56,044 bases of DNA, from assembly GCA_050260815.1 (NCBI GenBank), contig JBLNCQ010000114.1, forward strand, positions 1 through 56,044, given 5' to 3'. The stretch is from Bacillota bacterium (GTDB taxonomy: Bacteria > Bacillota > Sulfobacillia > JAMDAP01). Of this stretch, positions 13,279-46,021 are shown in pieces. Position numbers and translations under genes: made by a program. Below the pieces are notes generated by a model. It had not been told where the DNA came from, searched no databases, and was given only the letters and a program-made list of their open reading frames with translations. How positions within the stretch are numbered: the first letter of the stretch is position 1; each line of letters opens with the position of its first letter.

Positions 13279-14328
13279 TCAGACCTGCCACCAGAAGTAG
13301 AGCGTTAGGGCTGTGAAGCATGTGGCGACAGCGAGCACCAGAGTACGCCCCAGCCAGGGGCGCCTCTCCTCCAGGTAGGGCGCCGACCCCAGCAGCAGAA
13401 CCGCGGCCAGCGGAACGGCCACGCCCGCCACGAAGGGGGACAGCCGGTGGAGCAGCACCTGTACTGCGCCAAACACCCAGGGCGCCGGCACCGGCGCGAC
13501 CGACGGCTGGTCTGGCGCCAGACCGAGCCCGGGAGGCAGAAGCAGGGCCAGGAGCAGCACCAGGTTGGCGACCGCCAGGCCGGCCACCCACTCGCGCGCG
13601 GCAAGCTGCGAGAGCGGGATGTGGGTTCCGTCGTCCGCTGCCGGGCGGCTGATTCCGCCATCGCGGCGGACGTGCCACAGGTGCCAGCCCATCACGCCGA
13701 AGCCCGCCAGCGGAAAGACCGAGCTGTGCCAGGCCGATAGGCCCAGCAGGGCCCCCTGCCCGCCCGAGCCGAAGATGAGGGCGGCCAGCGCCTGGCCCAC
13801 CACCGGCACCGACCGCAGGATGCTCCACCCCACCGTGGCTGCGGAAACGGCCTCCAGGTCGCCACGCAGCAGGTAGCCGGTGTAGTCAAGGCCCACCACC
13901 AGCACCAGGAGCCCGACGCCCAGCCACCAGTTGAACCGGCGGGGCGGCAGGAAGGCCCGCGTCAGGGCCACGCGCAGCAGGTGGAACAGTACCGTCACCA
14001 CCAGCATCTGCGCCGCCCAGAAGTGGAGCGAGCGGAAGAGCCAGCCGTAGGGCAGGACGTAAGTCAGGTTGGCCAGGCTGCGGTAGGCGCCATCTCCGGG
14101 CTGGTATTGGAACAGCAGGGGAAGGCCCGTGACCAGCAGCAGGAGGAACAACAGCACCGAGGCCCCTCCCAGGCCATAGGTATAGCGGAATCGGGCGGCT
14201 GAGGCAGGCACCCAGCCGGGACGGCCGTGGGACAGGAAGCCGCGGCGCCTGGTCAGCGTTCGCACGCCTGGTCTTGCGGCGGGACCCGGTTGGGTTGGCA
14301 TGGGCGCGTGTCGCTCCGGCAGCGCCAC
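13279..14328 (-). CDS. Cytochrome b (b6-type, fused with subunit IV-like C-terminus)
   Basis: HFWAAQMLVVTVLFH (H-x13-H) and HSSVFPLAGFGVMGWH (H-x14-H, b6/Firmicute type). GTG 14328 sits 8 nt after GGAGG; alternative ATG at 14301. The longer track ORF overlaps the Rieske gene. Confidence 0.85.
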   Translation of the reverse strand: MALPERHAPMPTQPGPAARPGVRTLTRRRGFLSHGRPGWVPASAARFRYTYGLGGASVLLFLLLLVTGLPLLFQYQPGDGAYRSLANLTYVLPYGWLFRSLHFWAAQMLVVTVLFHLLRVALTRAFLPPRRFNWWLGVGLLVLVVGLDYTGYLLRGDLEAVSAATVGWSILRSVPVVGQALAALIFGSGGQGALLGLSAWHSSVFPLAGFGVMGWHLWHVRRDGGISRPAADDGTHIPLSQLAAREWVAGLAVANLVLLLALLLPPGLGLAPDQPSVAPVPAPWVFGAVQVLLHRLSPFVAGVAVPLAAVLLLGSAPYLEERRPWLGRTLVLAVATCFTALTLYFWWQV

Positions 14329-14404: not shown

Positions 14405-14905
14405 CTACAGGGGCAGGCGGAAACTTGCGTCAACCGTCCGGCTGAGATCCAGCCAGACGTGACCCTGAGCGTCCAGACGGAGCAGGGCTCGGGCCATGGC
14501 GATCCGGGCCGGCCCCTGGACAGGCCGGCCCTCAGCATCATAGCGGCTGGCATGGCAGGGGCAGGCAAACCCGCTGCCCTCTGCCCGGACAGCGCAGCCC
14601 AGGTGGGTGCACGTGCCTGCCAGTGCCTGCAGTCCGCGTTCGTCGCGGCTGATCCAGCAGTGTGTCTCGGGCACCTGCCGCCAAGACCCGGGAGGGAGGT
14701 CCGCCGCCAGCCTGGACGCCTCCCCCAGGTCCATAGGCTTGAGTCGACCTCTCGTGTCCCCATCCGGGGGCGAGGTGGCCATCAGACGGAAGAACGGTCC
14801 CAGCAGGCCGAGGCCGGCCAGGGCCAGGGCGCCCAGGCCGCCGGCCAGGAGGACGCGCCGGGTAATCCCGTTCCCCTCCAAGCTGTCCGCTCTTCCCTCC
14901 GACAT
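14405..14905 (-). CDS. Rieske 2Fe-2S protein with a twin-arginine signal
   Basis: CTHLGC..(x15)..CPCHASRY Rieske boxes. ITRRVLLAGG is a TAT-like motif followed by a TM segment. ATG 14905 follows AAAGGATGG. Confidence 0.9.
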   Translation of the reverse strand: MSEGRADSLEGNGITRRVLLAGGLGALALAGLGLLGPFFRLMATSPPDGDTRGRLKPMDLGEASRLAADLPPGSWRQVPETHCWISRDERGLQALAGTCTHLGCAVRAEGSGFACPCHASRYDAEGRPVQGPARIAMARALLRLDAQGHVWLDLSRTVDASFRLPL

Positions 14906-14957: not shown

Positions 14958-16001
14958 CTAGTGCGTGTACCAGGCAAAGGCCTGGCCGGCATAGACGATG
15001 ACGTAGCGGAGCAGGAACCCGCCCACCAGGACCAGCGTGCCGGTGAGCAGCCCCAGGGTCGGAACCGTCGGGACTGGGGCCGGGCGTCTGGCCGGGTGGG
15101 CGTGGTGCCTCAGTTCAGCGGCCTCCAGAACGATGGGCAGCAGTACGCCCGCCAGCATGGGCCCCAGCCAGAACAGCCAGGCGTAGGACCCGGCCAGCAT
15201 GACGTCCCAGGCCTTCCGGGCCGTCAGGGTTCCCAGGCGACTGTAAAGGATCATCAGCAGCAGGGTGGCAAGCTCCAGGCCCAAAAGGACCAGGTCGCCC
15301 CGGAGGAGCAGGTTCATCTCCGGGTCGGCGTGCGCTCCGGATGAAGCGGCGGCCGCCTCGGCCCGGGCGGTCCCGGGTACGGCGGCGACGTGCGCCCCCG
15401 CCCGGGCTTCGGTCCATCGGGCCAGGAGGACGGAGACCATCACTCCGGCCAGGCCGGTGGACATGGCGGAGAAGAGGAACAGCAGGGGCATGAGCGGCGA
15501 GCCCCAAAGCGGACGGGTGCTGGCACCTAACAGGATGGCGGTGTAGATGGCCACGCCCACGGCGAAGGGCAGGCCCACGCCTGCCAGGGTGCGCCGCGTG
15601 CGGCGGAGGCCTTCGTCAGGGCCGCCGGCCGCAGCCCGCCAGCCCTTCGGCAGAACGCGCGCCACGGCTGCGCGCCAGCCGTGGGGGAGCCAGACAAAGA
15701 AGTACAACACGCTGATGATGAGGAACGCGGTGAGGAACCAGACGCCGAAGGACATGGGCGACGTCGGCCGCAGGGTGGTGAACAGCCAGTAGAACGCAAG
15801 GGGACGGCCCAGGTCCAGGACCAACAGGCCGGTGCCCACAGCCGCGGGAAATGGCGCCAAAAAGGCGCCCCAGGCGACGGTTCGGCGGTGCCGCTCCCCG
15901 CTGCCAAGCAGCACTGCGGCGGAGGTGGCGAAGGCGCCGGCGCTCACGCCGGCCAGGAACAGGTAGAGGACGATGAGAAAGCCCCAGGACATCTCATGCA
16001 T
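14958..16001 (-). CDS. NrfD/PsrC-type polytopic membrane (quinone-interacting) subunit
   Basis: About 8-9 TM helices. N-terminus MHEMSWGFLIVLYLFLAGVSAGAF is typical of the NrfD family. ATG 16001 sits 6 nt after GAAGGAGGTG and overlaps the psrB-like stop by 8 nt. Confidence 0.85.
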   Translation of the reverse strand: MHEMSWGFLIVLYLFLAGVSAGAFATSAAVLLGSGERHRRTVAWGAFLAPFPAAVGTGLLVLDLGRPLAFYWLFTTLRPTSPMSFGVWFLTAFLIISVLYFFVWLPHGWRAAVARVLPKGWRAAAGGPDEGLRRTRRTLAGVGLPFAVGVAIYTAILLGASTRPLWGSPLMPLLFLFSAMSTGLAGVMVSVLLARWTEARAGAHVAAVPGTARAEAAAASSGAHADPEMNLLLRGDLVLLGLELATLLLMILYSRLGTLTARKAWDVMLAGSYAWLFWLGPMLAGVLLPIVLEAAELRHHAHPARRPAPVPTVPTLGLLTGTLVLVGGFLLRYVIVYAGQAFAWYTH

Positions 16002-16689
16002 GGTTCGCACCTCCTTCGATGGAGGCCAGGGCCCGGGCCGGTGAGCCGGTCTCTCGGGCGGGCGCGCCGGGCACGAGGGCGTCCGCCACCTTCATGGTGG
16101 CGGTGGCACCGGCCTTCTCGAGGAAGTCCGCCGGCACCGGCACGTCAATGTAGTAGATGTTTGGTCCGGTGCCCGCTTCAGCGGCCGCCTGGTAGTGGGG
16201 GAAAGCTGCCAGCAGTCTGGACACGGCGCTGGTCGGGTCGTTCAGGTCACCGGCAACGCGCGCCTTGCCCAGGCAGGTGGCCACGCAGGCGGGCTCCAGG
16301 CCCTTGTCCAGGCGGTGGACGCAGAGGGTGCACTTGTCCACGGCGCCTGTTTCCTCGTTCAGGTAGCGGGCACCGTAGGGGCACGCCTGGATGCAGTACT
16401 GGCAGCCGATGCACTTCTCCTGGTGGATGAGGACAATGCCGTCCTCTTCCCGCTTATAGGAGGCGCCGGTCGGGCACACGCCCACGCAGGGCGCGTTATC
16501 ACAGTGCATGCAGTTGGCCGGCTGAAAGGTCTCTTGCAGGTTGGGGAAGACACCGGTGATGCCGCTGCTCTTGATCCAGTTGCGGCTGTTCGGGATGGGG
16601 ACCTCGTTCTCGGCCCGGCAGGCCACAGTGCAGGCCTTGCAGTCGATGCACCGGGCCGTCAGCATCACAAAGCCATAGCGCTTAGCCAC
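15994..16689 (-). CDS. 4x[4Fe-4S] ferredoxin-type electron-transfer subunit (PsrB/PhsB/HybA-like)
   Basis: CIDCKACTVAC, CMHCDNAPCVGVCP, CIGCQYCIQACP, CTLCVHR..CVATC cluster motifs. Confidence 0.9.
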   Translation of the reverse strand: MAKRYGFVMLTARCIDCKACTVACRAENEVPIPNSRNWIKSSGITGVFPNLQETFQPANCMHCDNAPCVGVCPTGASYKREEDGIVLIHQEKCIGCQYCIQACPYGARYLNEETGAVDKCTLCVHRLDKGLEPACVATCLGKARVAGDLNDPTSAVSRLLAAFPHYQAAAEAGTGPNIYYIDVPVPADFLEKAGATATMKVADALVPGAPARETGSPARALASIEGGANHA

Positions 16690-16703: not shown

Positions 16704-19094
16704 TCATGCCTTGCTGACGGTGACAAAGGTCTGGCTCAGGGCCGACGAGCCCGCAATGGGGTCGGCATAGGTCTCGTGCAGCGCCGAGTCGCTGACGCCG
16801 CTCTGGTAGGCGGTCCGCAGCGCTTTGGACAGGTGGCCGAAGCCCGGCACCATGAACACGCAGTCGGGTCGGATGCCCTCGGTGACATAGGCCCGAGTGC
16901 GGACCTTGCCCACGGAACTTTCCACCACGACCACATCGCCCGTCCCAACGCCCAGCCTGGCGGCCACGCTGGTGTGGATCCAGACCGGGTTCTCCGGGAA
17001 GAGGTCGTGCAGCCAGCGGTTGTTCTGAGTACCCATCTGCGAGTGCTGCGCCACCTTGCCGGTGAGCAGGTAGAACTTGCCCGGAGGGGGAGCCGCCGGC
17101 TCCTCCCAGATGGGCACGCCCTTGCCCGCCACCTGGGCCAGCAGCGCGGAACTGATTTCAATCTTGCCGCTGGTCGTCTGAAATGTGAGCCCCGCCGCAG
17201 CATGCTCGGCGGCGCCGGCCTCCGGGGCGACGGCCTCCGAGGCAGCGGGCCCGGCAGCGGCTTCAGCGGCGCCGGCGGTGTCTGTAGCGGGCTCAGCGGC
17301 GCCGGCGAGCTCGGCGGCAACCGTCGCCTCCGCCTCGGACGGCTTCGCCTCAGCCTCCTCCGACTTCGGCGGCGCGTCATAGTACCCCCTGGCCTTGAAC
17401 TCGTCCAGGCTGACCGCGAAGGGCTTCATCTGGGCGGCCACCAGCTCTTCCTCGTTCTTGTAGGGGAAGTACTCGCCCAGCCCCAGCCGCTCGCCCAGCT
17501 GTTTGAAGATCATCAGGGCGGAGCGGGTGTCGTAGAGGGGCTCGATCACCGGCTGGCGCAGGAAGATGCGGTTGCCGGTGGCGATGACCGGGTCGTAGCG
17601 CTCCAGGTAGCTGGACTCCGGCAGGATGACGTCGGCGTAGTAGGCGGTGTCGTTGGGGATCACGTCTATGACCGCCAGCAGCTCCAGCTTGTTCAGGGCC
17701 TCAATGGTCTTGCGCCGGTCCGGCAGCGACAGGACGGGGTTCTGGCGCGAAACCAGCCAGCCGCGCGCCTGGTAGGGCTGCCCGGAGAGCACGGCGTCGC
17801 GGATGTTCTGGTAAATGCCGTAGACCAGGGGCACCAGCGGGAACTTCCAGGGCACGCCGTCCAGGCGCATGGCCGTGACCGGTGGGTAGGCCGGCTGGGG
17901 CAGGGTGCCCAGTTCCGGCCCCCCCTCCTCCCCGGCGCTGGGGATCAGGCCGCCCGGCTGGTTCCAGTTGCCGATCAGCGCGTTGAGCACCGCCATGGCC
18001 CGCTCGGTCTGGAAGGAGTTGAGGAAGTTGGAGGTGCGCCAGCCCGGGTGTACAAAGGCGTTCGGCCGGGCGGCGGCAAACTCCTGAGCAATGCGGCGGA
18101 TGGTGCGCGCCGGGATCTCCGTGCGGACCTCCGCCCACTCGGGCGTGTAGGGGTCCACTTCCTTCGCATACTCCTCAAAGCCAACGGTGTTGGCCTGCAG
18201 GAACTTCTCGTCGTAGAGCTTCTCCCTGACGATGACGTTGGCCATGGCCAGATAGAAGGCCAGGTCCGTGCCGGGACGGATGGGCAGCCATTCGCTGGCC
18301 TTGGCGGCCGACTTGGTGAAGCGGGGGTCCAGCAGGACCACATGGGCGCCGCGGTTCACCATGTCGACAAAGTCCTGGGTCTCGTTGTTGGAAATGGACT
18401 CCGCCAGGTTGCGCCCGGAGAAGATGGCGTATTTGGCGTGGGCGTAGTCGGTTCCGGGCTGCGCCTGGCCGAAAGTGAAGAGGTTGGCGATGGTCATGGA
18501 GTTGAAGCAGAGGCTGCGCTGGGTGCCGTAGTTGGGGCTGCCGTAGGCGCGCAGCAGGTTCTCAAAGTAGGGCTGGGAGAGGTTGTGCGTGGAGCTGAAA
18601 ACCATGGCCTCCGGCCCGTACTTCTCCTTGATCCGCTTCATCTCGCCCGCCGTGTAGTCCAGAGCCTCGTCCCAGGAGGCGCGGCGGAACAGCCCGCTCC
18701 CCCGGTCGCCGACCCGCATCAGCGGAAACTTGAGCCGGTCCGGGTCATACAGGACCTGGAGGCCGGCATTGCCGCGGGGGCAGAGCTTGCCGCGGTTGGC
18801 CGGGTGGTCGGGGTTGCCTTCCAGCTTCACCACAACGCCGTCGCGAACCCTGGCGTCCACACCGCAGCGCCAGACGCACATCTCGCAGAGGGTCTTCACC
18901 ACGCGCTCGCCTTGCTCACCGGCAGAGGCGGAACCGCTGGCCCTGGCCGGGCGGGCTCCGCCCGCCAGGACGCCGGCGGCGGCCAGACCCGCCGCCGCGG
19001 CGCTGCTGTAGCCAATGAACTGCCGGCGGCTGACCAACTGGTCCCAGGTGAAGATCTGGCCGATGCCCTCCGACTGCTTGGTATCCTTGGGCAT
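16704..19094 (-). CDS. TAT-exported molybdopterin oxidoreductase catalytic subunit, polysulfide/thiosulfate reductase-like (Psr/Phs family)
   Basis: SRRQFIG twin-arginine signal. CEMCVWRCGV..KLCPRG is the FS0 4Fe-4S motif. QRSLCFNS holds the probable Mo-ligand Cys. ATG 19094 sits 7 nt after AGGGAGGT. Contains an Ala/Glu/Pro-rich insertion (17190-17372). Confidence 0.9.
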   Translation of the reverse strand: MPKDTKQSEGIGQIFTWDQLVSRRQFIGYSSAAAAGLAAAGVLAGGARPARASGSASAGEQGERVVKTLCEMCVWRCGVDARVRDGVVVKLEGNPDHPANRGKLCPRGNAGLQVLYDPDRLKFPLMRVGDRGSGLFRRASWDEALDYTAGEMKRIKEKYGPEAMVFSSTHNLSQPYFENLLRAYGSPNYGTQRSLCFNSMTIANLFTFGQAQPGTDYAHAKYAIFSGRNLAESISNNETQDFVDMVNRGAHVVLLDPRFTKSAAKASEWLPIRPGTDLAFYLAMANVIVREKLYDEKFLQANTVGFEEYAKEVDPYTPEWAEVRTEIPARTIRRIAQEFAAARPNAFVHPGWRTSNFLNSFQTERAMAVLNALIGNWNQPGGLIPSAGEEGGPELGTLPQPAYPPVTAMRLDGVPWKFPLVPLVYGIYQNIRDAVLSGQPYQARGWLVSRQNPVLSLPDRRKTIEALNKLELLAVIDVIPNDTAYYADVILPESSYLERYDPVIATGNRIFLRQPVIEPLYDTRSALMIFKQLGERLGLGEYFPYKNEEELVAAQMKPFAVSLDEFKARGYYDAPPKSEEAEAKPSEAEATVAAELAGAAEPATDTAGAAEAAAGPAASEAVAPEAGAAEHAAAGLTFQTTSGKIEISSALLAQVAGKGVPIWEEPAAPPPGKFYLLTGKVAQHSQMGTQNNRWLHDLFPENPVWIHTSVAARLGVGTGDVVVVESSVGKVRTRAYVTEGIRPDCVFMVPGFGHLSKALRTAYQSGVSDSALHETYADPIAGSSALSQTFVTVSKA

Positions 19095-19107
19095 AGGACG
19101 AACCTCC

Positions 19108-19641
19108 CTAGACGTTGTGCTTTTCAAAGAAATAGAAGAGTAGCAGGGAGACCTGCGTGAAGAGCAAGATAATCAGCCAGGGGCTGACGTTCCAAAGGCT
19201 TGCCATGGTCACCGGACCGATGTTGGCCAGCTTGTAGATGGGCATGTACACGCTGTTGTAGCTCAGGCCGAAGAGGATGCCCCCAAAGAGGAAACCGAGC
19301 ACGGCGGGAATCAGGTAATCCAGGCTGCCCTGGCCGCTCCCGGCGGCACAGGTGCCCGGTCACAGTCCGCCGATGGCCATGCCCACGCCGAAGATCAGGC
19401 CGCCGACCACGTTGCCTACCACGTAGGTCTCGTTGACCTTGCTCATCTCCAGCAGGCCCAGTTCGTTCAGGCCGAAGACGCCGACCATGCCGACGATCAG
19501 TGCGGTCATCATGAACTTCATGACCGCCATGTCCTTAAACCGGAACACGTTCACGATCTTGTGGTACTTGGAGAGTCCGGCCTTCTGCAGGGCAAGGCCA
19601 AAACCCATGCCAAAGACCAGGGCCAGGGCGTACTGTCCCAT
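19108..19641 (-). CDS. YeeE/YedE-family (sulfur/selenium transport) half-permease B with an in-frame TGA (19360-19362) at the conserved Cys position; candidate selenoprotein or pseudogene
   Basis: The track splits it into 19360..20001 (C-terminal part MGQYALALVFGMGFG..GVGMAIGGL*) and 19108..19302. Both are in the same frame, and read-through gives GGL-U-PGTCAAGSGQGSLDYLIPAVLGF... ATGA overlap with half A. Size of 177 codons matches half A (175 aa). Confidence 0.6.
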
Positions 19642-20168
19642 CAGTACTTCCTCCCGTAAAGCAGCTTGGTTGTCACCACGCCGGAGGCAAACATACCGCC
19701 GATGAAGAGGAACCCGGCCGGAGCCAGCTGCAGCGAGCCGGAGATGGCCAGGCCGCTGGTGCAGCCTCCGGCGATTCCTGCGCCGTACTCCAGGATGGCG
19801 CCGGCCAGGAACACCGAGATCCAGCGGGTCCAGCGGTTGCCGCCAAAGGTCTCCACCCACTGGGGCGGGGCCGTCTCGATGTGGAAGTCGCCGGAGGACT
19901 TGGACGAGACGAAGGCGCCCAGGACGACGCCGATGATCAGGAACAACTGCCAGTTCAGCCCTGCCGGCATGATGTACTTGAAGTACATCTGCTCCGCCCA
20001 CGGGGCGCCGGTGGCCTTCAGGATGGTGCTGTCCAGGGTCTCAAAGGTGCCGGAGCCGCCCAGAAGCTGATCGGACAGCCAGTAGGCAAGGGTGGCCACC
20101 ACGCCCAGGAAGGCGCCGGCGGCATAGGGCGACCAGCTTTTCTTCTTCATGATCTCCATCAGGCCCAT
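19641..20168 (-). CDS. YeeE/YedE-family half-permease A
   Basis: Multi-TM protein with GAGIAGGCTSGLAISG (conserved GGC motif of the Sulf_transp/YeeE family). ATG 20168 sits 7 nt after GAGGAGG. Confidence 0.85.
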   Translation of the reverse strand: MGLMEIMKKKSWSPYAAGAFLGVVATLAYWLSDQLLGGSGTFETLDSTILKATGAPWAEQMYFKYIMPAGLNWQLFLIIGVVLGAFVSSKSSGDFHIETAPPQWVETFGGNRWTRWISVFLAGAILEYGAGIAGGCTSGLAISGSLQLAPAGFLFIGGMFASGVVTTKLLYGRKY

Positions 20169-20180
20169 GCTCCCGCCTCC

Positions 20181-21071
20181 TCAGTTCTTCTGGCCGCGGG
20201 CCAGGGACAGCACCAGGAGAAGCTCCTCCCGGCTCAAGGTCTCCAGGCGACCCACCAGGCTAAGATCCAACCGTGCCAGGCGGCGGAGCATGGCCGGGCC
20301 GCCGTCCTGATGCAGCACCTGCTCGAGGGCCTCCAGCGTGGAGGCGTCGCACTGGGCTAGCAGCGTGACAAGCTCGGCGCGCTCAGCGGGCATCGCCATT
20401 CCCACAGCGTCGGCAAAGGACTGACGGGATGCGGCTGCGTCCTTGCGGGTCCGGGGCTTCTTCTCGTACATCCAGTACGTGCCGGCCAGACCCAGGGCGG
20501 CCAGAGCGTTGAGCCCCCAGAGAACCTGGTTGCCGCGGTTCGGGGGCTGGGGCTCGCCGGGCAGGCGGCGGTTGAAGTCCAGCACGTCCTGCGTCCCGGC
20601 CGGGGCGGCGGGCGCCGGGGCGGAAGCCGCCGGCGGCGGAGGCGGGGTAGCGCTACCCGAGTTCTGATTGGTGGCCGGGCTAGTGCCGCCGGCCGCAGGA
20701 GCGCCGCCGGAGGGAGCTGAGCCGCCATACTTGGCCACCCGGGCGGCCAGGTCATTGGCGTGGCAGGTGGCGCAGGACTTCTGCGCGTCCTCCAGGGCCG
20801 GGCGCATCCCCTGGTGCGCTTTCTCGGCGGTGGTCTCCTTGGTTACGCCTCCGTGGCAGAACTCGCAGAAGTCGAAAGCGGCGTGGTCGGTATGCCATGC
20901 ACCGTTCTTCGACACCGGGTCCTTCCCCTGGATCTCGTGACAGGTCTTGCAGGATGAGGTCGATGCCCCGCAGGCCGCTTCCGCCCGCGTTGAGAGCCCA
21001 TACCAGGTGATGGCTCCCGCCAGGCCCACAGCGCCCAGCAGCAGGGCTGCGATTCGGACCGTCTTGCCCAT
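20181..21071 (-). CDS. Triheme cytochrome c with Pro/Ala-rich linker, C-terminal TM helix and about 90-aa cytoplasmic helical tail
   Basis: CKTCH, CEFCH, CATCH. N-terminal signal/anchor IAALLLGAVGLAGAI. Linker ..ATPPPPPAASAPAPAAPAG... TM segment VLWGLNALAALGLAGTYWMY. RBS GGGAGGAG. Confidence 0.75.
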   Translation of the reverse strand: MGKTVRIAALLLGAVGLAGAITWYGLSTRAEAACGASTSSCKTCHEIQGKDPVSKNGAWHTDHAAFDFCEFCHGGVTKETTAEKAHQGMRPALEDAQKSCATCHANDLAARVAKYGGSAPSGGAPAAGGTSPATNQNSGSATPPPPPAASAPAPAAPAGTQDVLDFNRRLPGEPQPPNRGNQVLWGLNALAALGLAGTYWMYEKKPRTRKDAAASRQSFADAVGMAMPAERAELVTLLAQCDASTLEALEQVLHQDGGPAMLRRLARLDLSLVGRLETLSREELLLVLSLARGQKN

Positions 21072-21091
21072 GCCTTCCGCCTCTCCTCCCT

Positions 21092-21117
21092 TTTGTGAAA
21101 GCTCTACGTTTCACAAA
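21092..21117. promoter_or_regulatory. Perfect 9-8-9 inverted repeat directly upstream of the operon RBS (operator or 5'-UTR hairpin)
   Basis: TTTGTGAAA-gctctacg-TTTCACAAA. Confidence 0.4.
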
Positions 21118-21190
21118 TCTGAGCCGGACCCGGTTGCCATCTCAGGGCTCTTGGCCTCCGGACGGGCGGCAGCGGGGCCTTCCATACCTG

Positions 21191-21204
21191 TACCCCTAGG
21201 GGTA
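21191..21204. promoter_or_regulatory. CsoR/CstR-type palindromic operator candidate
   Basis: TACCCCTAGGGGTA is a perfect 14-bp palindrome, starting 16 nt downstream of the predicted -10. It resembles the copA operator at 42337-42357. Confidence 0.4.
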
Positions 21205-21219
21205 TACACTCCCCTTTTC

Positions 21220-21249
21220 ATGCTACTGATGTCACATGGGTACCGTCAA
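21220..21249 (-). promoter_or_regulatory. Candidate promoter of the respiratory operon
   Basis: Minus strand TTGACG, 18-nt spacer, TAGCAT. Confidence 0.4.
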
Positions 21250-21287
21250 TCAAGTCTTTGCTTGCCTAAGTGGACCAGAGGCCCACG

Positions 21288-21328
21288 CCAAACAAACAGG
21301 GCCCCTGCCGCTGATCGCGGCAGGGGCC
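21288..21328 (-). terminator. Terminator after the HD-domain gene
   Basis: Minus strand GGCCCCUGCCGC-loop-GCGGCAGGGGCC (12 bp) followed by CUGUUUGUUUGG. Confidence 0.7.
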
Positions 21329-21352
21329 TCATGATTGCCGGGGTGATGGCTT

Positions 21353-22687
21353 CTACGCGGATTGGCTGAGTTCCCTGAGGAGCCGGCGCAGGCGCTCGCT
21401 CGCCGGGCCCGGCTGGATGAGGTCCTGTGCCACATAGAGGCGCTGGCGCTCGGCCTCTTCGAAGGTCAGGGCGCGCACCAGGGGCGAGAACTCGGCAAGG
21501 TCCGCCAGGCGGCCATGCTCATCCATCACCAGGATACCCTGGGTGTAGTGATAGTAGGGGCTCGAGGCGACGCGATCAACGGCCAGGTGGTAGGCCGGAT
21601 CAAGGCCGGCCTGCCGGGTCGCCTCCTGCAGGTCCGGCAGAAGCTCCGGGCGGTCGGCGGGAAGGTCCACGTATTCGTAGAGCCGGCGGTCCAGGAAGCG
21701 GTTGGCCAGGTCCGCCAGGATGGGGTCCGACTCCCGCTGCCACTCGGCAAAGGCGGCCACCAGGACAGACTCATCCAGGGCCAGGTACTCGGCCACTTCC
21801 AACTGGGCCGGCGGCTTCTCCAGGAAGGGGCGCAGGGGCCGCGGCACATGGTTGAGCCTCCCCTGACGGGCGTTCTCCAGGGCGCGCTCCAGGATGAGGT
21901 TCAGCACCACGTCGCTGCCTTTGGTCACCGGGTGGAGGTAGACCTGAACGTACATCAGGTACCGGGCCAGGATGTACTGCTCCACCGTGTGGACGCCGCT
22001 CTTCTTGATAACCACGGCCATGTCGCCGTCGGCGCTGCCGGTCGTGCCGCTTGCGACCAGCGGATATGGCCGCAGGGTGCGGATCAGCCGGTCGAGTTCC
22101 AGCCGGCCGTAGTTGACGCCGGTGGCCACGGCATCGCGCAGGATGTAGTCGATGCGGTCCACGTCCAGTTGGCTGGAAATGAGCGACGTCAGCACCCGGT
22201 GCTCGGAGCGGCCGGAGATGATGTCGGCCACGTCCCGGCCGAACCGGTCGTCCACCGCCGACAGAACCGCCGTTACCTGCGGGTCCTCCAACAGGATGCG
22301 GATGGTCCACTCCTCGTGGCGGGTGTGGAAGGCCTGCTCCATGGCGTGGGAGAACGGCCCGTGGCCCAGGTCGTGGACCAGGGCGGCCACGGTGCCCAGG
22401 TACCAGAGGCGCTGGTCGTCGGGCCAGTCCGGGGCGTTGCGGTGGAAGTGGGCCAGGACCCGGCGCATCAGCTCATAGGCGCCCAGGGCGTGGGCAAAGC
22501 GGCTGTGTTCCGCGCCGTGGAAGGTCAGGTAAGAGGTGCCCATCTGGCGGATGCGGCGCAGCCGCTGAAAGGCCCTGGTGTTGATCAGGTCCCAGATCAG
22601 CGAGTCCGACACGTAGATGTAGTTGTGAACGGGATCCTTGAAGACCTTTTCCTCAGGGAAGCGGCTAAGGCCGGGCAGAAGCCCCAC
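21353..22687 (-). CDS. HD-domain phosphohydrolase (SAMHD1/dGTPase-like)
   Basis: FKDPVHNYI, QRLRRIRQMG, HSRFAHALG, ALVHDLGHGPFSH. The exact start is uncertain. Confidence 0.85.
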   Translation of the reverse strand: MGLLPGLSRFPEEKVFKDPVHNYIYVSDSLIWDLINTRAFQRLRRIRQMGTSYLTFHGAEHSRFAHALGAYELMRRVLAHFHRNAPDWPDDQRLWYLGTVAALVHDLGHGPFSHAMEQAFHTRHEEWTIRILLEDPQVTAVLSAVDDRFGRDVADIISGRSEHRVLTSLISSQLDVDRIDYILRDAVATGVNYGRLELDRLIRTLRPYPLVASGTTGSADGDMAVVIKKSGVHTVEQYILARYLMYVQVYLHPVTKGSDVVLNLILERALENARQGRLNHVPRPLRPFLEKPPAQLEVAEYLALDESVLVAAFAEWQRESDPILADLANRFLDRRLYEYVDLPADRPELLPDLQEATRQAGLDPAYHLAVDRVASSPYYHYTQGILVMDEHGRLADLAEFSPLVRALTFEEAERQRLYVAQDLIQPGPASERLRRLLRELSQSA

Positions 22688-22732
22688 CTCCCGTGCACCG
22701 GGGCGCCGACTTAGGCCGGACGCCGGGGCGAC

Positions 22733-23212
22733 TCAGGGCAGGCTGCGGACAAACTCCAGAACCTGGTCAATGTGCCCGTCCACTTTGACCTTACGGTCAA
22801 TGCGGCGCAGGATGCCGTCCCGGTCGATGACGAACGTGCTGCGTTCAATGCCCAAGCGGGTCTTGCCGTACATGGTCTTGGGCTTGAGCACGTCGTACAG
22901 GTTGCAGACCTGCCCCTCCTCATCCGAGAGCAGGAGGAACGGCAGGTTGTACTTGGCGATGAACTTGTCGTGGGACCTGCAGGAGTCCTTGCTTACGCCC
23001 AGGATAACGGCGTCCGCATGGTCGAATTGGGCCTTCTGATCACGGAAGGCCGTGGCTTCAGCCGTTCAGCCGGGGGTGTCGTCCTTGGGGTAGAAGTAGA
23101 GGACCACCTTGCGTCCGCGCAGGTCGTGCAGGGAAACGGTCTGTCCGCCGGAGGCGGGCAGCGTGAAGTCGGGCGCGGGAACGCCGACCGTAAGCTCAGC
23201 GTTGTCGCTCAT
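22733..23212 (-). CDS. bcp: BCP/PrxQ-type peroxiredoxin with TGA (23066-23068) in place of the peroxidatic Cys codon; predicted selenocysteine peroxiredoxin
   Basis: Own translation: [109 protein letters not shown]... The single frame continues through the TGA to the stop at 22733. AAAGGAGG sits 6 nt before ATG 23212. Neither half appears in the ORF track. Confidence 0.8.
23030..23051 (-). other. SECIS-like hairpin downstream of the bcp UGA
   Basis: Minus strand GGCCUUC-CGUGAUCA-GAAGGCC (7 bp, 8-nt loop containing GU), beginning 14 nt after the UGA. Confidence 0.45.
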
Positions 23213-23302
23213 GGACATCCTCCTTTAGTGGTTTACTTGTCCACAAAGTGCGGAAAATCCTGCCGCCCGCGCCGTCTGGCTCGTTCGGGCCGCCGGCCCG
23301 GG

Positions 23303-24769: not shown

Positions 24770-24826
24770 CCGGCCCCGCTTCTGTTCTGACAGAGAAAGA
24801 GAATACTCACGGGGGGCGGGACAGCG

Positions 24827-26506
24827 ATGAATGCGGTGGAACAAGAGGCCAGGGACTTCCTGGACCGGACCGTGCCGGAGGTGGAGCGCCTCTCCAGGGG
24901 CATTTCGGAGGCCTACTGGCGCGCCACAACGGGCGGCGGCGAGGAAGCCGAGCAGGAATACGTCCGGCTCCGCCAGGATCTGATGGGGCTGTTCGCCAAT
25001 CGGGAGCAGTTTGCCCTGCTGAAGTCATGGCGGAGCAGCGGCCAGGTGCAGGATCCGCTTCTCGCCCGGCAGTTGGACCTGCTCTACAACGAGTACCTGG
25101 GCAATCAGATACCGAAGGAGACCATAGCCGAGCTGGTGCGCCGGGAGACCGAGCTGGAGAGCACCTTCACCAACTTCCGGGCGGAATACCGCGGCCGGCG
25201 GGTCTCGGACAACGAGATCAAGGAGATCCTGACGGAGGAGAACGACAGCGACCTGCGGCGCCAGGCCTGGGAGGCCAGCAAGCAGATCGGCGGTGAGGTA
25301 GCCCCCAGGCTGCTGGAACTGGTGGAGCTTCGCAATCGCGTGGCCCGCGACCTGGGCTTCCAGGACTACTACGCCATGGCCCTGGCCCTGCAGGAGATTG
25401 ACGAGGACGAGCTGTTCATCGTTCTGGACCGGCTGGAAGAGCGCACCGCCGCCCCCTTTGCCGAGGCCAAGGGCCGGCTGGACCGACAGCTCGCAGAGCG
25501 CTTCGGGGTGGCGGTCGAGGCCCTGCGGCCCTGGCACCTGGCGGACCCCTTCTTCCAGGAGCCGCCGTCAGCGCCGGACCTGGACCTCGACCGATTCTTC
25601 CGCGGCAAGGACGTGCGCGACATGGCGCGTGACTTTTACCGCGGCCTTGGCCTGGACGTAGACGACATTCTGGCCCGCAGCGATTTGTTCGAACGCGAGG
25701 GCAAGAATCAGCACGCCTATTGCATGGACCTGGACCGCCGGGGCGACGTGCGCATCCTGGCCAATCTGAAGGATAACGAGCTATGGGCCTCCACCATCCT
25801 TCACGAGCTGGGCCACGGCGTCTATGGCAAGTACCACAACCCGGAGCTACCATACCTGCTGCGGACGGAGGCCCACATCTCCAGCACCGAGGCCATCGCC
25901 ATGCTGATGGGCGCCCTGACCAAGAACGCCCGCTGGCTGCAGACGTACGCCGGAGCGGACCGCCGGGACGCAGAGTCCATCCAGGCGCGGGTGCGGGACT
26001 ACCTGACGCTGGCCATGCTGGTCTTCGTCCGCTGGGGCCTGGTGATGGTGTACTTTGAGCGGGCCATGTACGGCGACCCCAGCCAGGACCTCAACCGCCT
26101 CTGGTGGGACCTGGTGGAACGGCTGCAGCTGGTGCGGCGGCCGGAGGGCCGCAACGAGCCGGACTATGCGGCCAAGATTCACCTGGGCACGGCCCCCGTG
26201 TACTACCAGAACTACATCCTGGGCGAGCTGACCGCGGCCCAGGTGCGCGCCACGCTGGCGCGTGAGGCCGCGCCTGGTTCCGAAAGGGCGGGACGTCTCA
26301 CGGAACCGGCCGACGTCCTGATCGACAACCCGCGGGCCGGGCGGTTCCTGGTCGACCGCATCTTCCGCCTGGGCTCGCGCTACCCCTGGAACGAGTTGCT
26401 TCGCCAGGCCACGGGCGAGCGACTGAACGCGGACCACTTCGTCAGCCAGTTCGTGGGTTCCGCCGGCGGCGTGACCGGCGGCACGTCGGCGGAGGGTCGG
26501 TCCTGA
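24827..26506 (+). CDS. Zinc metallopeptidase, M2/M3-like (ACE-like/oligopeptidase fold)
   Basis: HELGHGVY is the HExxH motif, and TEAIAMLMG downstream is a candidate third-ligand Glu. About 560 aa. Confidence 0.75.
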   Translation: MNAVEQEARDFLDRTVPEVERLSRGISEAYWRATTGGGEEAEQEYVRLRQDLMGLFANREQFALLKSWRSSGQVQDPLLARQLDLLYNEYLGNQIPKETIAELVRRETELESTFTNFRAEYRGRRVSDNEIKEILTEENDSDLRRQAWEASKQIGGEVAPRLLELVELRNRVARDLGFQDYYAMALALQEIDEDELFIVLDRLEERTAAPFAEAKGRLDRQLAERFGVAVEALRPWHLADPFFQEPPSAPDLDLDRFFRGKDVRDMARDFYRGLGLDVDDILARSDLFEREGKNQHAYCMDLDRRGDVRILANLKDNELWASTILHELGHGVYGKYHNPELPYLLRTEAHISSTEAIAMLMGALTKNARWLQTYAGADRRDAESIQARVRDYLTLAMLVFVRWGLVMVYFERAMYGDPSQDLNRLWWDLVERLQLVRRPEGRNEPDYAAKIHLGTAPVYYQNYILGELTAAQVRATLAREAAPGSERAGRLTEPADVLIDNPRAGRFLVDRIFRLGSRYPWNELLRQATGERLNADHFVSQFVGSAGGVTGGTSAEGRS

Positions 26507-26509
26507 CCT

Positions 26510-27070
26510 TTGGAAGGCCTGCAATTCCTGGGCACGTCCGGGCCAGCTTATCCCTACAGCGTGGTCGTCCGACCCGGACCCCAGATGGAGCGGCAGCTAA
26601 AGAACTTGGCCACGCTCCACCCCCTCTTCCGGCACCAGGTGCCGGCGCACATCACTGTCAAGTCTCCGTTTTACCTGCGCAGTACCGGCGCCATTGTGGG
26701 CGATCACCTGGAGGAAGTCTGTGAACAGGTGGAACCTTTTGAACTGCAGATTCACGGCCTTGCCTCCTTTGAAACCTCGGTGATCTACGCCCGGGTGGAT
26801 GACTCGCCCGCGCTGCGCCAGCTTCACTTGCGGCTGCTGGATGCCCTGGAGGGCTACGTGGAGACCATCACAGACCGATACGAGGGCACGGGCTACACGC
26901 CGCACCTGACCATTGCCTCACGCCTGCGCCGCGACGAGTTCACCGAGGCCTGGCAATCGCTGGCCGGGTTCGGCCTGCATGGCACCATCCTGGTGGACCG
27001 CGTGCACATGCTGCGCGGGCACCACGCGTGGCAGGTTACACGCAGCTTCCGGCTGGGAGGGCAGGGCTGA
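26510..27070 (+). CDS. 2H phosphoesterase / 2'-5' RNA ligase (LigT)-like protein
   Basis: Two HxT motifs: AHITVK and PHLTIA. TTG start. Confidence 0.7.
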   Translation: MEGLQFLGTSGPAYPYSVVVRPGPQMERQLKNLATLHPLFRHQVPAHITVKSPFYLRSTGAIVGDHLEEVCEQVEPFELQIHGLASFETSVIYARVDDSPALRQLHLRLLDALEGYVETITDRYEGTGYTPHLTIASRLRRDEFTEAWQSLAGFGLHGTILVDRVHMLRGHHAWQVTRSFRLGGQG

Positions 27071-40039: not shown

Positions 40040-42307
40040 TTAGGCCCGGAATCCGTGCATCGGATTGAAGCGCTTTAGCAGCGAGGAGTTAGTGACAACG
40101 GAGACGGAGCTGAAGGCCATAGCCGCTCCGGCGATGGCCGGAGCCAAGTAGCCGAAGGCCGCAATGGGGATACCCGCCGTGTTGTAGATCAGGGCCCAGA
40201 ACAGGTTCTGCTTGATCTTGCGCATGGTCTGACGGCTCAGGCGGATGGCCGCGGGGATGCCCCGCAGGTCGCCCCGCATCAGGGTGATGCCGGCCGCCTC
40301 CATGGCCACGTCTGTGCCCGTGCCGATGGCCATGCCCAGGTCGGCGGCCACCAGGGCGGGTGCATCGTTGATGCCGTCACCCACCATACCGACCACTCGC
40401 CCCTCACCCTTGAGGGATTCCACCTTGGACGCCTTCTGCTCAGGCAGCACTTCGGCCAGCACGTGCTCCGGCTTGATCCCCACCTGAGCGGCAATGGCGG
40501 CGGCAGTACTGCGGTTGTCGCCGGTGATCATCCAGACCTCAATGCTCATCTGCTGCAGGGCGGCGATGGCCTCGCCCGAGGTCTCCTTGACCGTGTCGGC
40601 CACGGCCACCAGCCCGGCCAGCCGGCCATCCACGGCCACCCACATGGCCGTCTTGCCCTGCCCCTCCAGCGTCTGCTTCCGCGCAGCGGCGGCCCCGGGG
40701 TCGATGCCATTGTCGGTCATGAGCTTGGTTGTACCCACCAGCAGGCTGCGCCCGTCCACCACGGCCCTCACTCCGCGCCCCGGGATGGCCTCAAACGAGT
40801 CGGGGTCGCCAAGCTCCAGACCGCGGTCCTTCGCTCCCGCCACAATGGCCTGCGCCAGGGGGTGCTCCGACATCCGTTCCGCCCTGGCGGCCAGCCGGAG
40901 CAGGTCCTCTTCCGACAGTGCGGCTCCATCGTCGGCCGCAAGCACCATCACGTCGGTGAGCGCCGGTTCGCCCTTGGTGATGGTGCCGGTCTTGTCCAGC
41001 ACCACGGTGTTCAGCATGTAGGCCTTCTCCAGGTGCTCGCCGCCGCGGATGAGGATGCCCTTCTCCGCCCCCAGGCCGGTCCCCACCATGATGGCGGTGG
41101 GGGTGGCCAGGCCAAGGGCGCAGGGGCAAGCGATGACCAGCACCGCCGTAAAGTAGAGAATGGCGCGGGTATAGTCTCCGGTGAACGCGATCCAGCCGAG
41201 GAACGTCAGGACGGCAATGCCGATAACCGCTGGTACAAAGTAGGCCGAGACCACGTCCGCCAGGCGCTGGATGGGCGCCTTGTGCGTCTGCGCCTCCTCC
41301 ACCACCCGGATGATCTGAGCCAGGGCGGTATCACGGCCCACCTTGGTGGCTTCCATGCGGATGACCCCGCACCCGTTTATGGTGGCACCGATGACCTCGT
41401 CACCCGGCTTCTTGTCCACGGGGATGGACTCGCCCGTGAGCATGGACTCGTCTACGGTGGAGTGACCATCCTGCACGATGCCGTCCACGGGAATCTTCTC
41501 ACCCGGCCTGACCAGCAGCAGGTCGCCCACCTGGACGTCCTCCAGAGGAATCTGCTGTTCCTGGCCGTCGCGGATGACCGTAGCCGTCTTGGCCTGCAGA
41601 CCCATCAGCTTCTTGATGGCCTCTGACGTGCGCCCCTTGGCCACGGCCTCCAGGTACTTGCCCAGGATAATCAAGGTAATGATCACGGCCGCGGTCTCGT
41701 AGTACACATCGCTGCGTCCAATGGCGTCGCCCCAGATGGTGACCACCAGGCTATAGAGGTAGGCAGCCGTGGTGCCCAGGGCGATCAGGACCGACATGTT
41801 CGCCGTGCGGTTCTTCAGATTGTGGTAGCTGTCCACGTAGAACTGCCAGCCGGCGTAGAACTGGACCGGTGTAGCCAGGGCCAGTTGGAACCAGGGATTC
41901 ATAAAGATCATGGGCGGATGGAAGCCGAAAAGTTCCCCGAACATGTAGACCAACAGCGGCACCGTCAGGGCCGTAGAGAACCAGAAGAGCCGCCACTGTC
42001 GCATGAGCTCCCGTTCGCGGGCCTCTTTCTCGGCGTCGGTGCTGCCGGCCTCATCCTTGGCGAACGCCTCATAACCCAGGTCCTTGACCGCGTGCTTCAT
42101 ATCGGCGACGCTGACCGCGCCCGGCAGATAGGAAACCAGGGCCGTCTCGGTCCCGAAGTTGACAGTGGCCTGCAGGACACCATCCATGCCGGATAGCTTG
42201 CGCTCGATCTTCTGGGCGCAGTTGGCGCAGGTCATGCCGCGAATGCCAAAAGACAGGCGATGCAGGGCCAGGTCTCTCTGGGCGAGGGCCGCAGACTGTC
42301 CTGTCAT
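40040..42307 (-). CDS. copA: Copper-translocating P1B-type ATPase
   Basis: GMTCANC HMA domain, [28 protein letters not shown] 42307 follows GGGAGTG. Confidence 0.95.
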
Positions 42308-42336
42308 GAAGAACACTCCCATCGGTTCAGTTTACC

Positions 42337-42357
42337 TACCCTACCCTGGGTAGGGTA
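42337..42357. promoter_or_regulatory. CsoR operator upstream of copA
   Basis: TACCCTACCC-T-GGGTAGGGTA, a perfect 10-1-10 inverted repeat 30 nt upstream of the copA ATG. Confidence 0.6.
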
Positions 42358-42440
42358 TCCAACGGCTTCAGTATGAGCGCCGGTTGTGAAGAAGTTATGA
42401 AGCGACGATCGAGGATGTCCGAACCGGGGGCCGGCCCGCA

Positions 42441-42485
42441 TTCTGAACAGACAAGGCCAGGCAGCCGCTGAGCGGGTACCTGGCC
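42441..42485 (-). terminator. Hairpin after merA
   Basis: GGCCAGG..CCGC-UCA-GCGG..CCUGGCC followed by UUGUCUGUUCAG on the minus strand. Confidence 0.4.
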
Positions 42486-42509
42486 TGAAATGCGGCGGGA
42501 GGCTTATCA

Positions 42510-44183
42510 TCAGCCCGCGCAACAGCTCAACTTCGAGACGTCGGTGTCAAAGGCCATTGCAGCCAACTTCAAGCCTTCTGCCATGGTGAGATAGGGAGCC
42601 AGTGTGTCCTTGAGGTCCTGGACCGTAAGGCCGAACTTAACGGCCAGCGTGGCCGCATAGATCACGTCGCCGGCGTTCCCAGCAACGACGTGGGCACCCA
42701 GGATCTTGCCCGTTTGGGCCTCGGCCACCAGCTTGAAGACACCTGTGGTTTCGCGGTTGGCCAGGGCACGGGGAACCGCCTTCAGCGGCAGGACCGATGT
42801 CCGGATCTCACGGCCCCCCTGCCGGGCCTCGGCTTCCGTCAGCCCAACGGTGGCGACCGACGGGTTGGTAAAGGTCACCGCCGGTACCACCCGCAAGTCC
42901 AGTTCGCGCTCCGCCCCTCCCACGGCGACGTCGGCGACCAGGGCGCCTTCATAGGCGGCAACATAGACAAACTGGGGACCGAGGGTAACATCTCCGGCCG
43001 CGAAGATGTGGGGAATGTTGGTTCGCAAGTACTCGTCCACCAGGACCTCAGCGCGGGAGCCAACGGCTACACCGACATTGGCCAGGCCAAGGGAGTCGGT
43101 GTTGGGCCGGCGCCCTGCCGCTACCAGGAGCCGCTCGGCCTCAACGGTGTGTACCGTCCCATCCTTTTCGAAGTGGACACGGCTCTTGCCGTCGCCTCCT
43201 TCCACGTTCCGGTACCTGACCCCGGTGATGACATCAATCCCCTCGTCGCGAAGCGCCTGCTCTATGGCTTCAGAGATCTCGGGATCGTACCGCTTTAGCA
43301 GACGCGCGCCGCGCTGCAACAGCGTCACGTGCGTCCCCAGATGGCGGAAAAGCTGCCCCAGCTCGAGAGCAATGTAGCCGGCGCCGATGACGACCAGACT
43401 CTTCGGAACCTCCTTCAGCTCCAACGCCGAAGCACTGGTCAAGTAGGGAACACCGGCCAACCCGGGAATCTCCGGCACGGCCGGCGAGGCACCCGTGGCG
43501 ATGAGGAAGTGGCTCGCTGTGACTCTCCCCTCACCTACTTGCAGCGTGTGCTCATCCACGAACCGAGCCTCACCTGGGATCAGGTCAAACCCGTATTCGG
43601 CGATGAGATCAACGTATTTCTCCTGGCGCATGTCAGCTACAAGCCGGTTCTTCTGTCCTACAAGAAGACCCAGATCGACTGGCGCCACTGCCGTTCCCAG
43701 GCCGGCAAAGGGGTTGTTCCGGGCTGCAAAGTAGATCTCGGCCGCACGCAAAAGGGTTTTCGACGGAACGCAGCCGATGTTAACGCAGGTGCCGCCGACC
43801 GTGCCGCGTTCGATCATGGCCACTCGAGCGCCGTGGCTTCGGGCCCGAATAGCGGCAGAGAAGGCCGCACCGTGAGAGCCTATGATGGCCAGGTCATACG
43901 GCTGGTCTCTCTGACCACCGCCACCGGGAGCGGCGCCGCTCGCTCGGCGACTCACCTCTTCCCACTCCCCCGGGTGATACCCGGCTTTGCCCACAGCCTC
44001 GGCAAACGGGCTGACGTCTGCCCCGCCGGGGATGCTGAAATCGGCCTCGCCGCGGCGATAACTCACCTCGACCTGCTCGGCTCCCGCGCCCGCGAGTGCC
44101 TTGCAAACATGTTCTTCGCAGCTTGGGCAGCTCATGCCGCCGATGGTCATTCGGATCTGCCGAATCAAACCCTGATTAACCAT
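42510..44183 (-). CDS. merA: Mercuric reductase with N-terminal HMA domain
   Basis: [22 protein letters not shown] redox-active disulfide, C-terminal KLSCCAG Cys pair. ATG 44183 follows GGGAGGAAC. Confidence 0.9.
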
Positions 44184-44350
44184 GACACTTGTTCCTCCCG
44201 GGGCAGTAGATCGCCGCCAAGGCGGCAGAAAACATGGCACCGAGACCGCTAAGGCGCTCCAACTGAGATTCGCTCCCCTCTCCGTCGGCGTGTCGCGGCG
44301 TTCCGGCGAATCGCAGGCGGTCCGCTTCACGTACTACGAGACGCAGGCGA

Positions 44351-44737: not shown

Positions 44738-45004
44738 CTCTACGACTCCAAATTTTTAAATATGATGGCCTTACGCTACTGCATGTCGCCGGCGTGTGTC
44801 AAGTGGACAGGCTGGGCGGAAGGCCCGGGACGCCTTCCCACGGCTTCTTGGCAGTGGTCTTTAGCCGTTTGTGTAGATGTTGTGGATTCGGTCCCAGGTA
44901 GCCTATTGGGTGAACAACTTCACGGTAACATCACAAGTTGGCTGTAGACTAGGCCGTGGCTGCTCCAAACTCACCACAGGATACCTTTTTCCGGAGGAGG
45001 CAAA

Positions 45005-46003: not shown

Positions 46004-46021
46004 ACGGAAGGGAGGACCACA

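Follow-up and report, generated by a model that had tools for sequence, protein, structure and literature searches.

A predicted selenocysteine at the pore-cysteine position of a PmpB-type half-permease encoded in a Psr/Phs-like operon

In contig JBLNCQ010000114.1 of a Bacillota bacterium, whose 56,044 nucleotides (nt) were analysed as a whole and are called the window below, the gene for a YeeE/YedE-type half-permease is split by a single in-frame TGA, which raises the question of whether this codon ends a broken gene or is translated. We argue that the TGA at 19362..19360 is very probably a selenocysteine (Sec) codon that replaces the pore Cys of a PmpB-type half-permease, a prediction drawn from comparative analysis. 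The minus-strand frame 19641..19108 runs through 177 sense codons with one internal TGA as codon 94, and its read-through product begins MGQY...GVGMAIGGL, meets the TGA and continues PGTCAAGSGQGSLDYLIP...EKHNV. A preliminary description of this DNA had reported a lone TGA in an otherwise unbroken frame, a 177-codon product comparable to a partner of 175 residues, and translational coupling to both neighbouring genes, all of which was borne out by translation and by the junctions themselves: the TGA stop of the partner gene shares one base with the ATG of the Sec gene (TGATG), and the next gene begins 13 nt past the TAG of the Sec gene, with a GGAGG overlying that stop. With Cys put in for the stop, the half-permease product matched the Pfam family PF04143 (Sulf_transp) with 77.3 bits (cut-off 27, E = 2.1e-21), covering profile positions 10-151 of 310, while the partner (20168..19641) covered positions 167-308. 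Because they cover separate halves of PF04143, the Sec gene and the gene upstream of it represent the N-half and the C-half of a split YeeE-type permease.

The position of the TGA within this family was also as first described, since it falls on the conserved functional Cys of the YeeE/YedE-type half-permease. Every one of the 25 close full-length homologues that were aligned, at 55-68% identity, has Cys in the TGA column, within a near-invariant G-[FY]-C-P-G-T-C motif, and of the best 120 database hits 119 likewise carry Cys, the remaining one having Trp. A profile of the homologue alignment matched YeeE of Spirochaeta thermophila (StYeeE, PDB 6LEO) with E = 4e-10 over residues 6-104 and set the TGA column on StYeeE Cys91 (..GMVLAGGC91ASG..), and the Cys of the partner's GGCTSG motif aligned to Cys293 (AGGCNIG in PDB 6LEP). 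Cys91 and Cys293 line the constriction of YeeE and are essential, and their E. coli equivalents are not replaceable by Ser (Tanaka et al. 2020, PMC7449682). In the split permeases of this family the PmpB-type halves hold the Cys91 equivalent and the PmpA-type halves the Cys293 equivalent, and a heterodimer has been proposed (Li et al. 2024, PMC11582611). Since the halves carry these equivalents, the window pair can be assigned as PmpA-like and PmpB-like, with the predicted Sec in the PmpB-like half. Furthermore, a second cysteine, Cys98, four residues past Sec94, is kept in 190 of the 192 distinct Sec forms. In the AlphaFold monomer of the closest Cys homologue (predicted local distance difference test, pLDDT, 69.5), which together with the Foldseek result was used for consistency only, the Cys opens a short helix that follows a transmembrane helix. 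The single Trp at the Cys/Sec position belongs to P0060, an otherwise typical JGI metagenome protein of 184 residues (GYWPGTC); TGG is one base from TGA, and this Trp may reflect a true substitution, an error in sequencing or a gene called with a UGA=Trp code.

Were the TGA a recent disruption or a miscalled base, the gene would be dead. A single-base change is enough to turn TGC or TGT into TGA, and every one of the window protein's closest relatives is a Cys form, which would fit a pseudogene or a sequencing or assembly error. However, the same TGA is present in two independent Sequence Read Archive assemblies from different sequencing runs, L240 (99.79% identical to the window) and L241 (99.92%), which were located through the partner protein that they encode and represent slightly different strains; their Sec-gene coding sequence differs from that of the window by one synonymous base. 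The recurrence of the TGA in these assemblies argues that it is not an assembly error. Moreover, a degenerate DNA pattern in which TGA was forced at this codon and only invariant neighbouring residues were fixed matched at least 119 loci in species-representative genomes and at least 120 metagenome contigs. The species-representative matches listed are mostly from Chloroflexota/Anaerolineae, with a few Bacillota (Soudan_17, Clostridiales PH28_bin88) and one Eisenbacteria; OW818655.1 and JAOSJQ010000001.1 are examples of the TGA form in complete genomes of Anaerolineae. Of the 239 matches listed, 215 show homology both before and after the TGA, the frame typically runs on for 88-92 codons, and the residues after the TGA that were not forced by the pattern (C+4, G+9, G+11, D+14, Y+15, G+19) are 97-100% conserved. 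The same TGA is thus found in more than 200 orthologous loci with conserved, intact downstream open reading frames (ORFs), and the orthologues share this TGA with no scattered or other disruptions, so that the gene appears to be alive, as had been proposed. Together with a hairpin that is specific to the TGA forms, described below, and with the place of the gene inside a tightly packed and otherwise intact operon, these observations make a pseudogene or an error extremely unlikely.

The UGA could also be a true stop, in which case the locus would make a 93-residue fragment, alone or together with a C-terminal piece that has its own start, and the pieces would assemble as a split permease. This is how gene callers and NCBI treat the locus, where they annotate a 93-residue 'YeeE/YedE family protein' plus a downstream fragment, and the family already works as split halves. 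What speaks against a true stop is the sequence that follows it: among the matches listed, the first in-frame start codon lies at least 13 codons past the TGA, none occurs within 22 codons in 59 of 208 loci, and nowhere is the protein better conserved than in these 13 or more codons that directly follow the TGA. Since this conserved stretch precedes any start codon, only read-through can make it. Termination at the UGA would also remove the essential pore residue and leave unexplained a hairpin of the bacterial selenocysteine insertion sequence (bSECIS) type, and we therefore regard it as very improbable.

How Sec and Cys forms are related to each other was considered in a neighbour-joining tree built from 292 sequences, Sec and Cys forms together, which, for a short protein and with no support values, needs at least 17 switches between Sec and Cys. 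In the same tree, again with no support values, the window protein is the lone Sec form in a clade whose 12 members are otherwise Cys forms, which points either to a recent and independent switch from Cys to Sec or to Sec having been lost repeatedly. Repeated exchange of Cys and Sec at one site is typical of catalytic redox cysteines. No Cys-form paralogue was found in the fetched Sec-form loci. In a representative library at 50% identity the whole subfamily forms one cluster, uninformative for the Sec:Cys ratio, although more distant truncated forms turned up there. At a greater distance, a low-GC PmpB-like gene, L254:4001-4534 (GCA_027036855.1), seen also in L255, is about 43% identical and has a TGA at the same position (..ALLGG-U-PGQSAAALGEG..), after which the ORF runs on for 83 codons; it follows a PmpA-like gene and lies beside a LysR-type regulator, a small ferredoxin and a protoglobin/PsiE protein, with no Psr operon.

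In bacterial selenoprotein genes, SelB with Sec-tRNA(Sec) binds a hairpin in the message during translation and inserts Sec at the UGA. The window gene has a stem-loop of this kind within its coding sequence, CCUG-U-GCCGC[CGGGA]GCGGC-CAGG, whose apical loop starts 17 nt past the UGA. The 53 nt from the UGA fold with a minimum free energy (MFE) of -27.1 kcal/mol (z = -2.83; none of 200 shuffles folded equally well) into the shape ((((((. ((((. ((((( CGGGA ))))) )))) ... )))))). The published bSECIS rules call for a loop of 3-9 nt whose first two positions include a G, a stem of at least 4 base pairs (bp), a distance of 16-37 nt from the UGA and an MFE of -7.5 kcal/mol or lower (PMC13188914 section 5), and the window hairpin, with its 5-bp upper stem of -7.8 kcal/mol, agrees with all of them. 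The full rule set is satisfied by 182 of 192 distinct Sec forms versus 1 of 10 Cys-form genes (Fisher p = 7e-10, with phylogeny not taken into account), and an uninterrupted stem of at least 5 bp with its loop 15-22 nt after the codon occurs in all 192 Sec forms versus 3 of the 10 Cys forms. The apical loops of the Sec forms are mainly GGU, GGUC, CGGGA and GGC. At the same time, Cys forms with an identical peptide use codons that do not pair, and Sec forms with other Ser or Gly codons (GGC, AGC, UCC) keep the hairpin in a shifted register. Of the two hairpins first proposed here, CCAGG-GCAG-CCUGG does exist, within a 68-nt fold, while the one directly after the UGA is not the best SECIS candidate. 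Folding energy was rejected as a discriminator between Sec and Cys, Cys-form regions folding about equally well, and shuffling synonymous codons within columns moved the energy only slightly (-17.66 versus -16.95 kcal/mol, z = -5.6); because folding energy does not discriminate, the explicit bSECIS geometry was used, which does.

A second candidate selenoprotein, a PrxQ/Bcp peroxiredoxin, is encoded 3.4 kb from the permease gene. That a second UGA-for-Cys gene (bcp) lies nearby had been noticed before, and its in-frame TGA was indeed found, at 23068..23066. Sec-containing Prx/COG1225 proteins are a known selenoprotein family. The PrxQ hairpin at 23030-23051, in which GGCCUUC and GAAGGCC enclose the loop CGUGAUCA, has 7 bp and -10.9 kcal/mol, its loop starts 21 nt past the UGA, and it falls within the bSECIS constraints; the PrxQ TGA is also present in the independent assembly L240. 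As a separate observation, the PrxQ leader (23210-23293, minus strand) gave a weak match to the Rfam osmY RNA (18.9 bits versus a gathering score of 46.9, E = 0.55), which is most likely due to chance.

It could be considered that the UGA is read through but not as Sec, either by suppression with a near-cognate tRNA-Trp or tRNA-Cys or because UGA has been reassigned in this lineage. The genes of the 56-kb window include no Sec machinery, and one homologue, P0060, has Trp at the position, both of which would be compatible with such a scheme. Nevertheless, TGA is an ordinary stop elsewhere in the contig, where it terminates many ORFs with a high GC content at third codon positions, the partner gene included, and because TGA ends these other genes UGA is not reassigned. 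Trp at this position is also implausible, since the Cys of YeeE is not replaceable by Ser or Ala. Moreover, UGA stands at a redox Cys in two unrelated genes of the window, each followed by a hairpin at bSECIS spacing (17 and 21 nt), which is the signature of Sec, and read-through with another amino acid seems to us highly improbable.

The interpretation of the UGA as a Sec codon has a number of observations to contend with. Among 35 ORFs of the window scanned with Pfam there were no SelA, SelB or SelD domains, and ARAGORN found no tRNA, and so no tRNA-Sec, in the 56 kb, although the UGA-for-Cys codon of PrxQ lends indirect support to Sec machinery in this genome; an Rfam E-value scan of 19000-23300 returned no SECIS family and only chance-level matches. 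Over 48 nt, the folding energies of six Cys-form regions lie between -13.5 and -24.4 kcal/mol, a range that takes in the mean of the Sec forms (-17.7), and part of the hairpin comes free, because the peptide C-A-A-G-x-G written in GCC and GGC codons pairs easily. The comparison of hairpins between Sec and Cys forms has ten Cys-form DNAs to draw on and carries no correction for phylogeny. As to structure, the AlphaFold model is mediocre by its pLDDT, and the best Foldseek match in the PDB, YeeE 6LEP, is weak (TM score 0.55, E = 1.3). Finally, both the heterodimer and the substrate discussed below are inferred.

The Sec gene is part of a large, respiratory-type gene cluster on the minus strand, running from 21071 to 11016 (Table 1), in which a gene for a protein with three CxxCH motifs is followed by the PmpA-like, PmpB-like (Sec), PsrA/PhsA-like, 4Fe-4S, NrfD, Rieske and cytochrome b genes. 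Cytochrome b is followed by a 490-residue ORF with weak matches to multihaem cytochromes c and, after a short gap, by a DoxX-family gene. Among the matches listed, wherever a locus had enough flank, the Sec-form gene is preceded by a PmpA-like gene (169 of 169 loci) and nearly always followed by one of the PhsA type (123 of 131); the Cys of the partner's GGCTSG motif is retained in 221 of 221 loci, none of which has Sec in that motif. In related operons the place of the three-CxxCH gene is held by a gene for about 280-300 residues with no Pfam assignment. The Cys-form relatives, including Limnochorda pilosa and several Chloroflexota, carry the same module, often behind an ArsR-type regulator, and the core of two permease halves and PsrABC-like genes is conserved from Limnochordia-like Bacillota to Chloroflexota. 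The PsrA/PhsA-like subunit scored 630.5 bits against the PhsA model NF012032, under its cut-off of 694. The PsrA/PhsA/SrrA lineage reduces polysulfide, thiosulfate or selenite at the outer face of the membrane (PMC7331816).

Table 1. Features of the permease locus and of the second candidate selenoprotein gene, in window coordinates.
Feature	Position	Strand	Details and basis
PrxQ/Bcp peroxiredoxin, second candidate selenoprotein	22733..23212	-	UGA 23066-23068 at the peroxidatic Cys position
Membrane-anchored protein with three CxxCH haem-binding motifs (CKTCH, CEFCH, CATCH), first gene of the cluster	20181..21071	-	sequence; weak cytochrome Pfam matches below cut-off
PmpA-like (C-half type) partner, 175 residues	19641..20168	-	Cys in GGCTSG (StYeeE Cys293 equivalent); PF04143; aligned to 6LEP residues 228-311
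PmpB-like (N-half type) YeeE/YedE half-permease	19108..19641	-	predicted Sec at codon 94, Cys at codon 98 (U-x3-C); translation, PF04143, alignment to PDB 6LEO residues 6-104
In-frame UGA, proposed Sec codon	19360..19362	-	equivalent to StYeeE Cys91 and E. coli YeeE Cys94
bSECIS-like stem-loop within the coding sequence	19320..19359	-	upper stem GCCGC/GCGGC, loop CGGGA (19338-19342); extended by CCUG/CAGG and CCGGGC/GCCUGG
PsrA/PhsA-like molybdopterin oxidoreductase	16704..19094	-	twin-arginine-type N-terminus (RRQFIGYSSAAAAG); Molybdop_Fe4S4, Molybdopterin, Molydop_binding
PsrB-like 4Fe-4S subunit	15994..16689	-	gene call / Pfam scan
NrfD/PsrC-like membrane anchor	14958..16001	-	L240 gene call mapped to the window through alignment
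Rieske protein	14405-14905	-	gene call; same order in L242 and Limnochorda pilosa L243
Cytochrome b	13279-14157	-	gene call; same order in L242 and Limnochorda pilosa L243

What might a Sec residue do in such a permease? SelB-dependent insertion would yield a 177-residue, four-helix PmpB-type half-permease, which could pair with the PmpA-type half encoded upstream to form an hourglass pore like that of YeeE. In the solved YeeE structure the narrow centre of the hourglass is lined by conserved cysteines (PMC7449682), and in the proposed heterodimer Sec94 would stand in place of the essential Cys91, and Cys136 of the partner in place of the essential Cys293, at the constriction. We hypothesise that the pair serves the co-encoded PsrABC/PhsABC-like molybdoenzyme, which bears an export signal, and that sulfane-sulfur, thiosulfate or polysulfide species, or with less likelihood selenium species, would be the cargo taken across the membrane. 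As the stronger nucleophile, the selenolate may enter into a short-lived Se-S bond, which could be passed to, or resolved by, Cys98. The crystal structure of YeeE led to the proposal that thiosulfate is guided through the pore by S-H...S hydrogen bonds. The essential pore Cys has, however, been exchanged for a predicted Sec repeatedly and in more than 100 species, with a Cys one helical turn away. As one step further, YeeE/Pmp-type permeases could potentially relay the chalcogen covalently, by way of a short-lived persulfide (Se-S or S-S), beyond S-H...S guidance, and PmpA/PmpB(Sec) with PsrABC could be a dedicated and so far unrecognised module for sulfane-sulfur (or selenium) uptake and respiration, among the commonest selenoproteins of Anaerolineae; taken jointly, these propositions are tentative, and we regard them as possible but rather doubtful.

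The idea that this family includes selenoproteins has a history. The preliminary description knew of no Sec-containing YedE-type member, but a 'YeeE/YedE (thiosulfate transporter) family' selenoprotein is already catalogued, with PF04143, the example WP_012471001.1 and the motif GUxSG (PMC9312934, PMC13188914), and the concept is therefore not new. These reviews give Zhang & Gladyshev 2008 and Peng et al. 2016 as the sources of the entry; the main text of the primary papers does not mention the family, which appears as a supplementary count only, in 5 genomes (Peng et al. 2016). The catalogued protein and the window protein share the Pfam family, a membrane location and one predicted Sec, and neither has been experimentally characterised. 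They differ in motif, the window protein having G-L-U-P-G-T-C and its orthologues [FY]-U-P-G-T-C, with no G-U-x-S-G; the distinction is made on the motif description. The two also differ in known occurrence, 5 genomes in 2016 versus more than 100 species-representative genomes for the window form (among the matches listed). A motif of the form [LFY]-U-P-G-T-C, a half-size protein, the link to a Psr-like operon and a far wider distribution than the catalogue records suggest that the predicted window selenoprotein is different from the catalogued one.

The closest organisational counterpart is PmpA/PmpB of Serratia sp. ATCC 39006 (PMC11582611), which is likewise encoded by two adjacent genes, in the order A then B, for four-helix halves. 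The window halves are longer (about 175 versus about 130 residues), the window PmpB-like half, unlike Serratia PmpB, has a predicted Sec in place of Cys and a second Cys four residues later, and the pair lies in a Psr/Phs-like respiratory operon as opposed to the pmpABC context of Serratia. With TsuA/YeeE (Spirochaeta thermophila, PDB 6LEO/6LEP; E. coli YeeE with YeeD/TsuB) the window pair shares the fold family and the pore cysteines. TsuA, however, is a single nine-helix chain of 330-350 residues, whereas the window pair lacks the fused central helix, and the third Cys of TsuA (Cys22) aligns to Ser24 in the window half; moreover, no TusA/YeeD-like gene was found adjoining the window pair, and the window protein scored far below the cut-offs of the NCBIfam TsuA models (NF041049, 41.4 bits against 400; NF052577, 27.8 against 645). 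YedE/FdhT (TIGR04112 / NF033796; Lin et al. 2015, PMC5322559) is a distant homologue from the same superfamily with the same conserved Cys, and is genomically linked to selenium use, being a ten-helix Cys protein encoded beside selD or SirA-like genes (PMC5322559). The window protein reached 30.5 bits against NF033796, whose cut-off is 350, and its gene, unlike that of YedE, has cytochrome and Psr-like genes and no sel genes as neighbours. Other transport proteins with a predicted Sec are the SO_0444 family Cu/Zn efflux transporter (UxC), SaoP/SaoB and a putative mercuric transport protein (PMC13188914). These, too, are predictions from sequence in which Sec lies in or near a membrane transport path, but their folds are unrelated to that of the window protein and, unlike it, they have presumed metal substrates.

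In public records the Sec forms stand as a 93-residue 'YeeE/YedE family protein' or 'hypothetical protein' that ends at the UGA, with no selenoprotein label (NCBI and JGI, for example WP_345308173.1, MBK7456205.1, HQX02325.1 and MBI5962356.1), and no specific NCBIfam model matches the window protein. One cluster of such 93-residue proteins is present on 53-81 contigs. Recognising the Sec codon would mend a gene now entered in pieces, both in the species-representative genomes identified, which are mostly of Chloroflexota, and on many metagenome contigs. Because the predicted Sec sits on a YeeE residue proven by mutagenesis and crystallography to be essential, the natural Cys/Sec swaps offer a direct way of asking if the pore cysteines donate hydrogen bonds or serve as nucleophiles. 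Furthermore, the strict linkage to a Psr/Phs-like molybdoenzyme suggests that half-size permeases of the Pmp type, which are poorly understood, function in the respiration of sulfur (or selenium). That a Sec-containing YeeE/YedE protein was already known as a concept limits the surprise, and the case is a solid selenoprotein prediction and not a new category.

Elsewhere in the window, two further read-through candidates, in-frame ORF pairs with a TGA between them at 24791-27070 and 46004-47482, were rejected, each being a set of separate genes (an M3-type peptidase and a 2'-5' RNA ligase in the former, Lgt and DUF1405 in the latter). A metal-resistance-like cluster lies on the minus strand at 40040-44755, with an ArsR-type regulator (44351-44755), a MerA-like pyridine-nucleotide disulfide oxidoreductase (42510-44333) that carries an HMA domain at its N-terminus, and a heavy-metal P-type ATPase (40040-42331) that likewise has an HMA domain.

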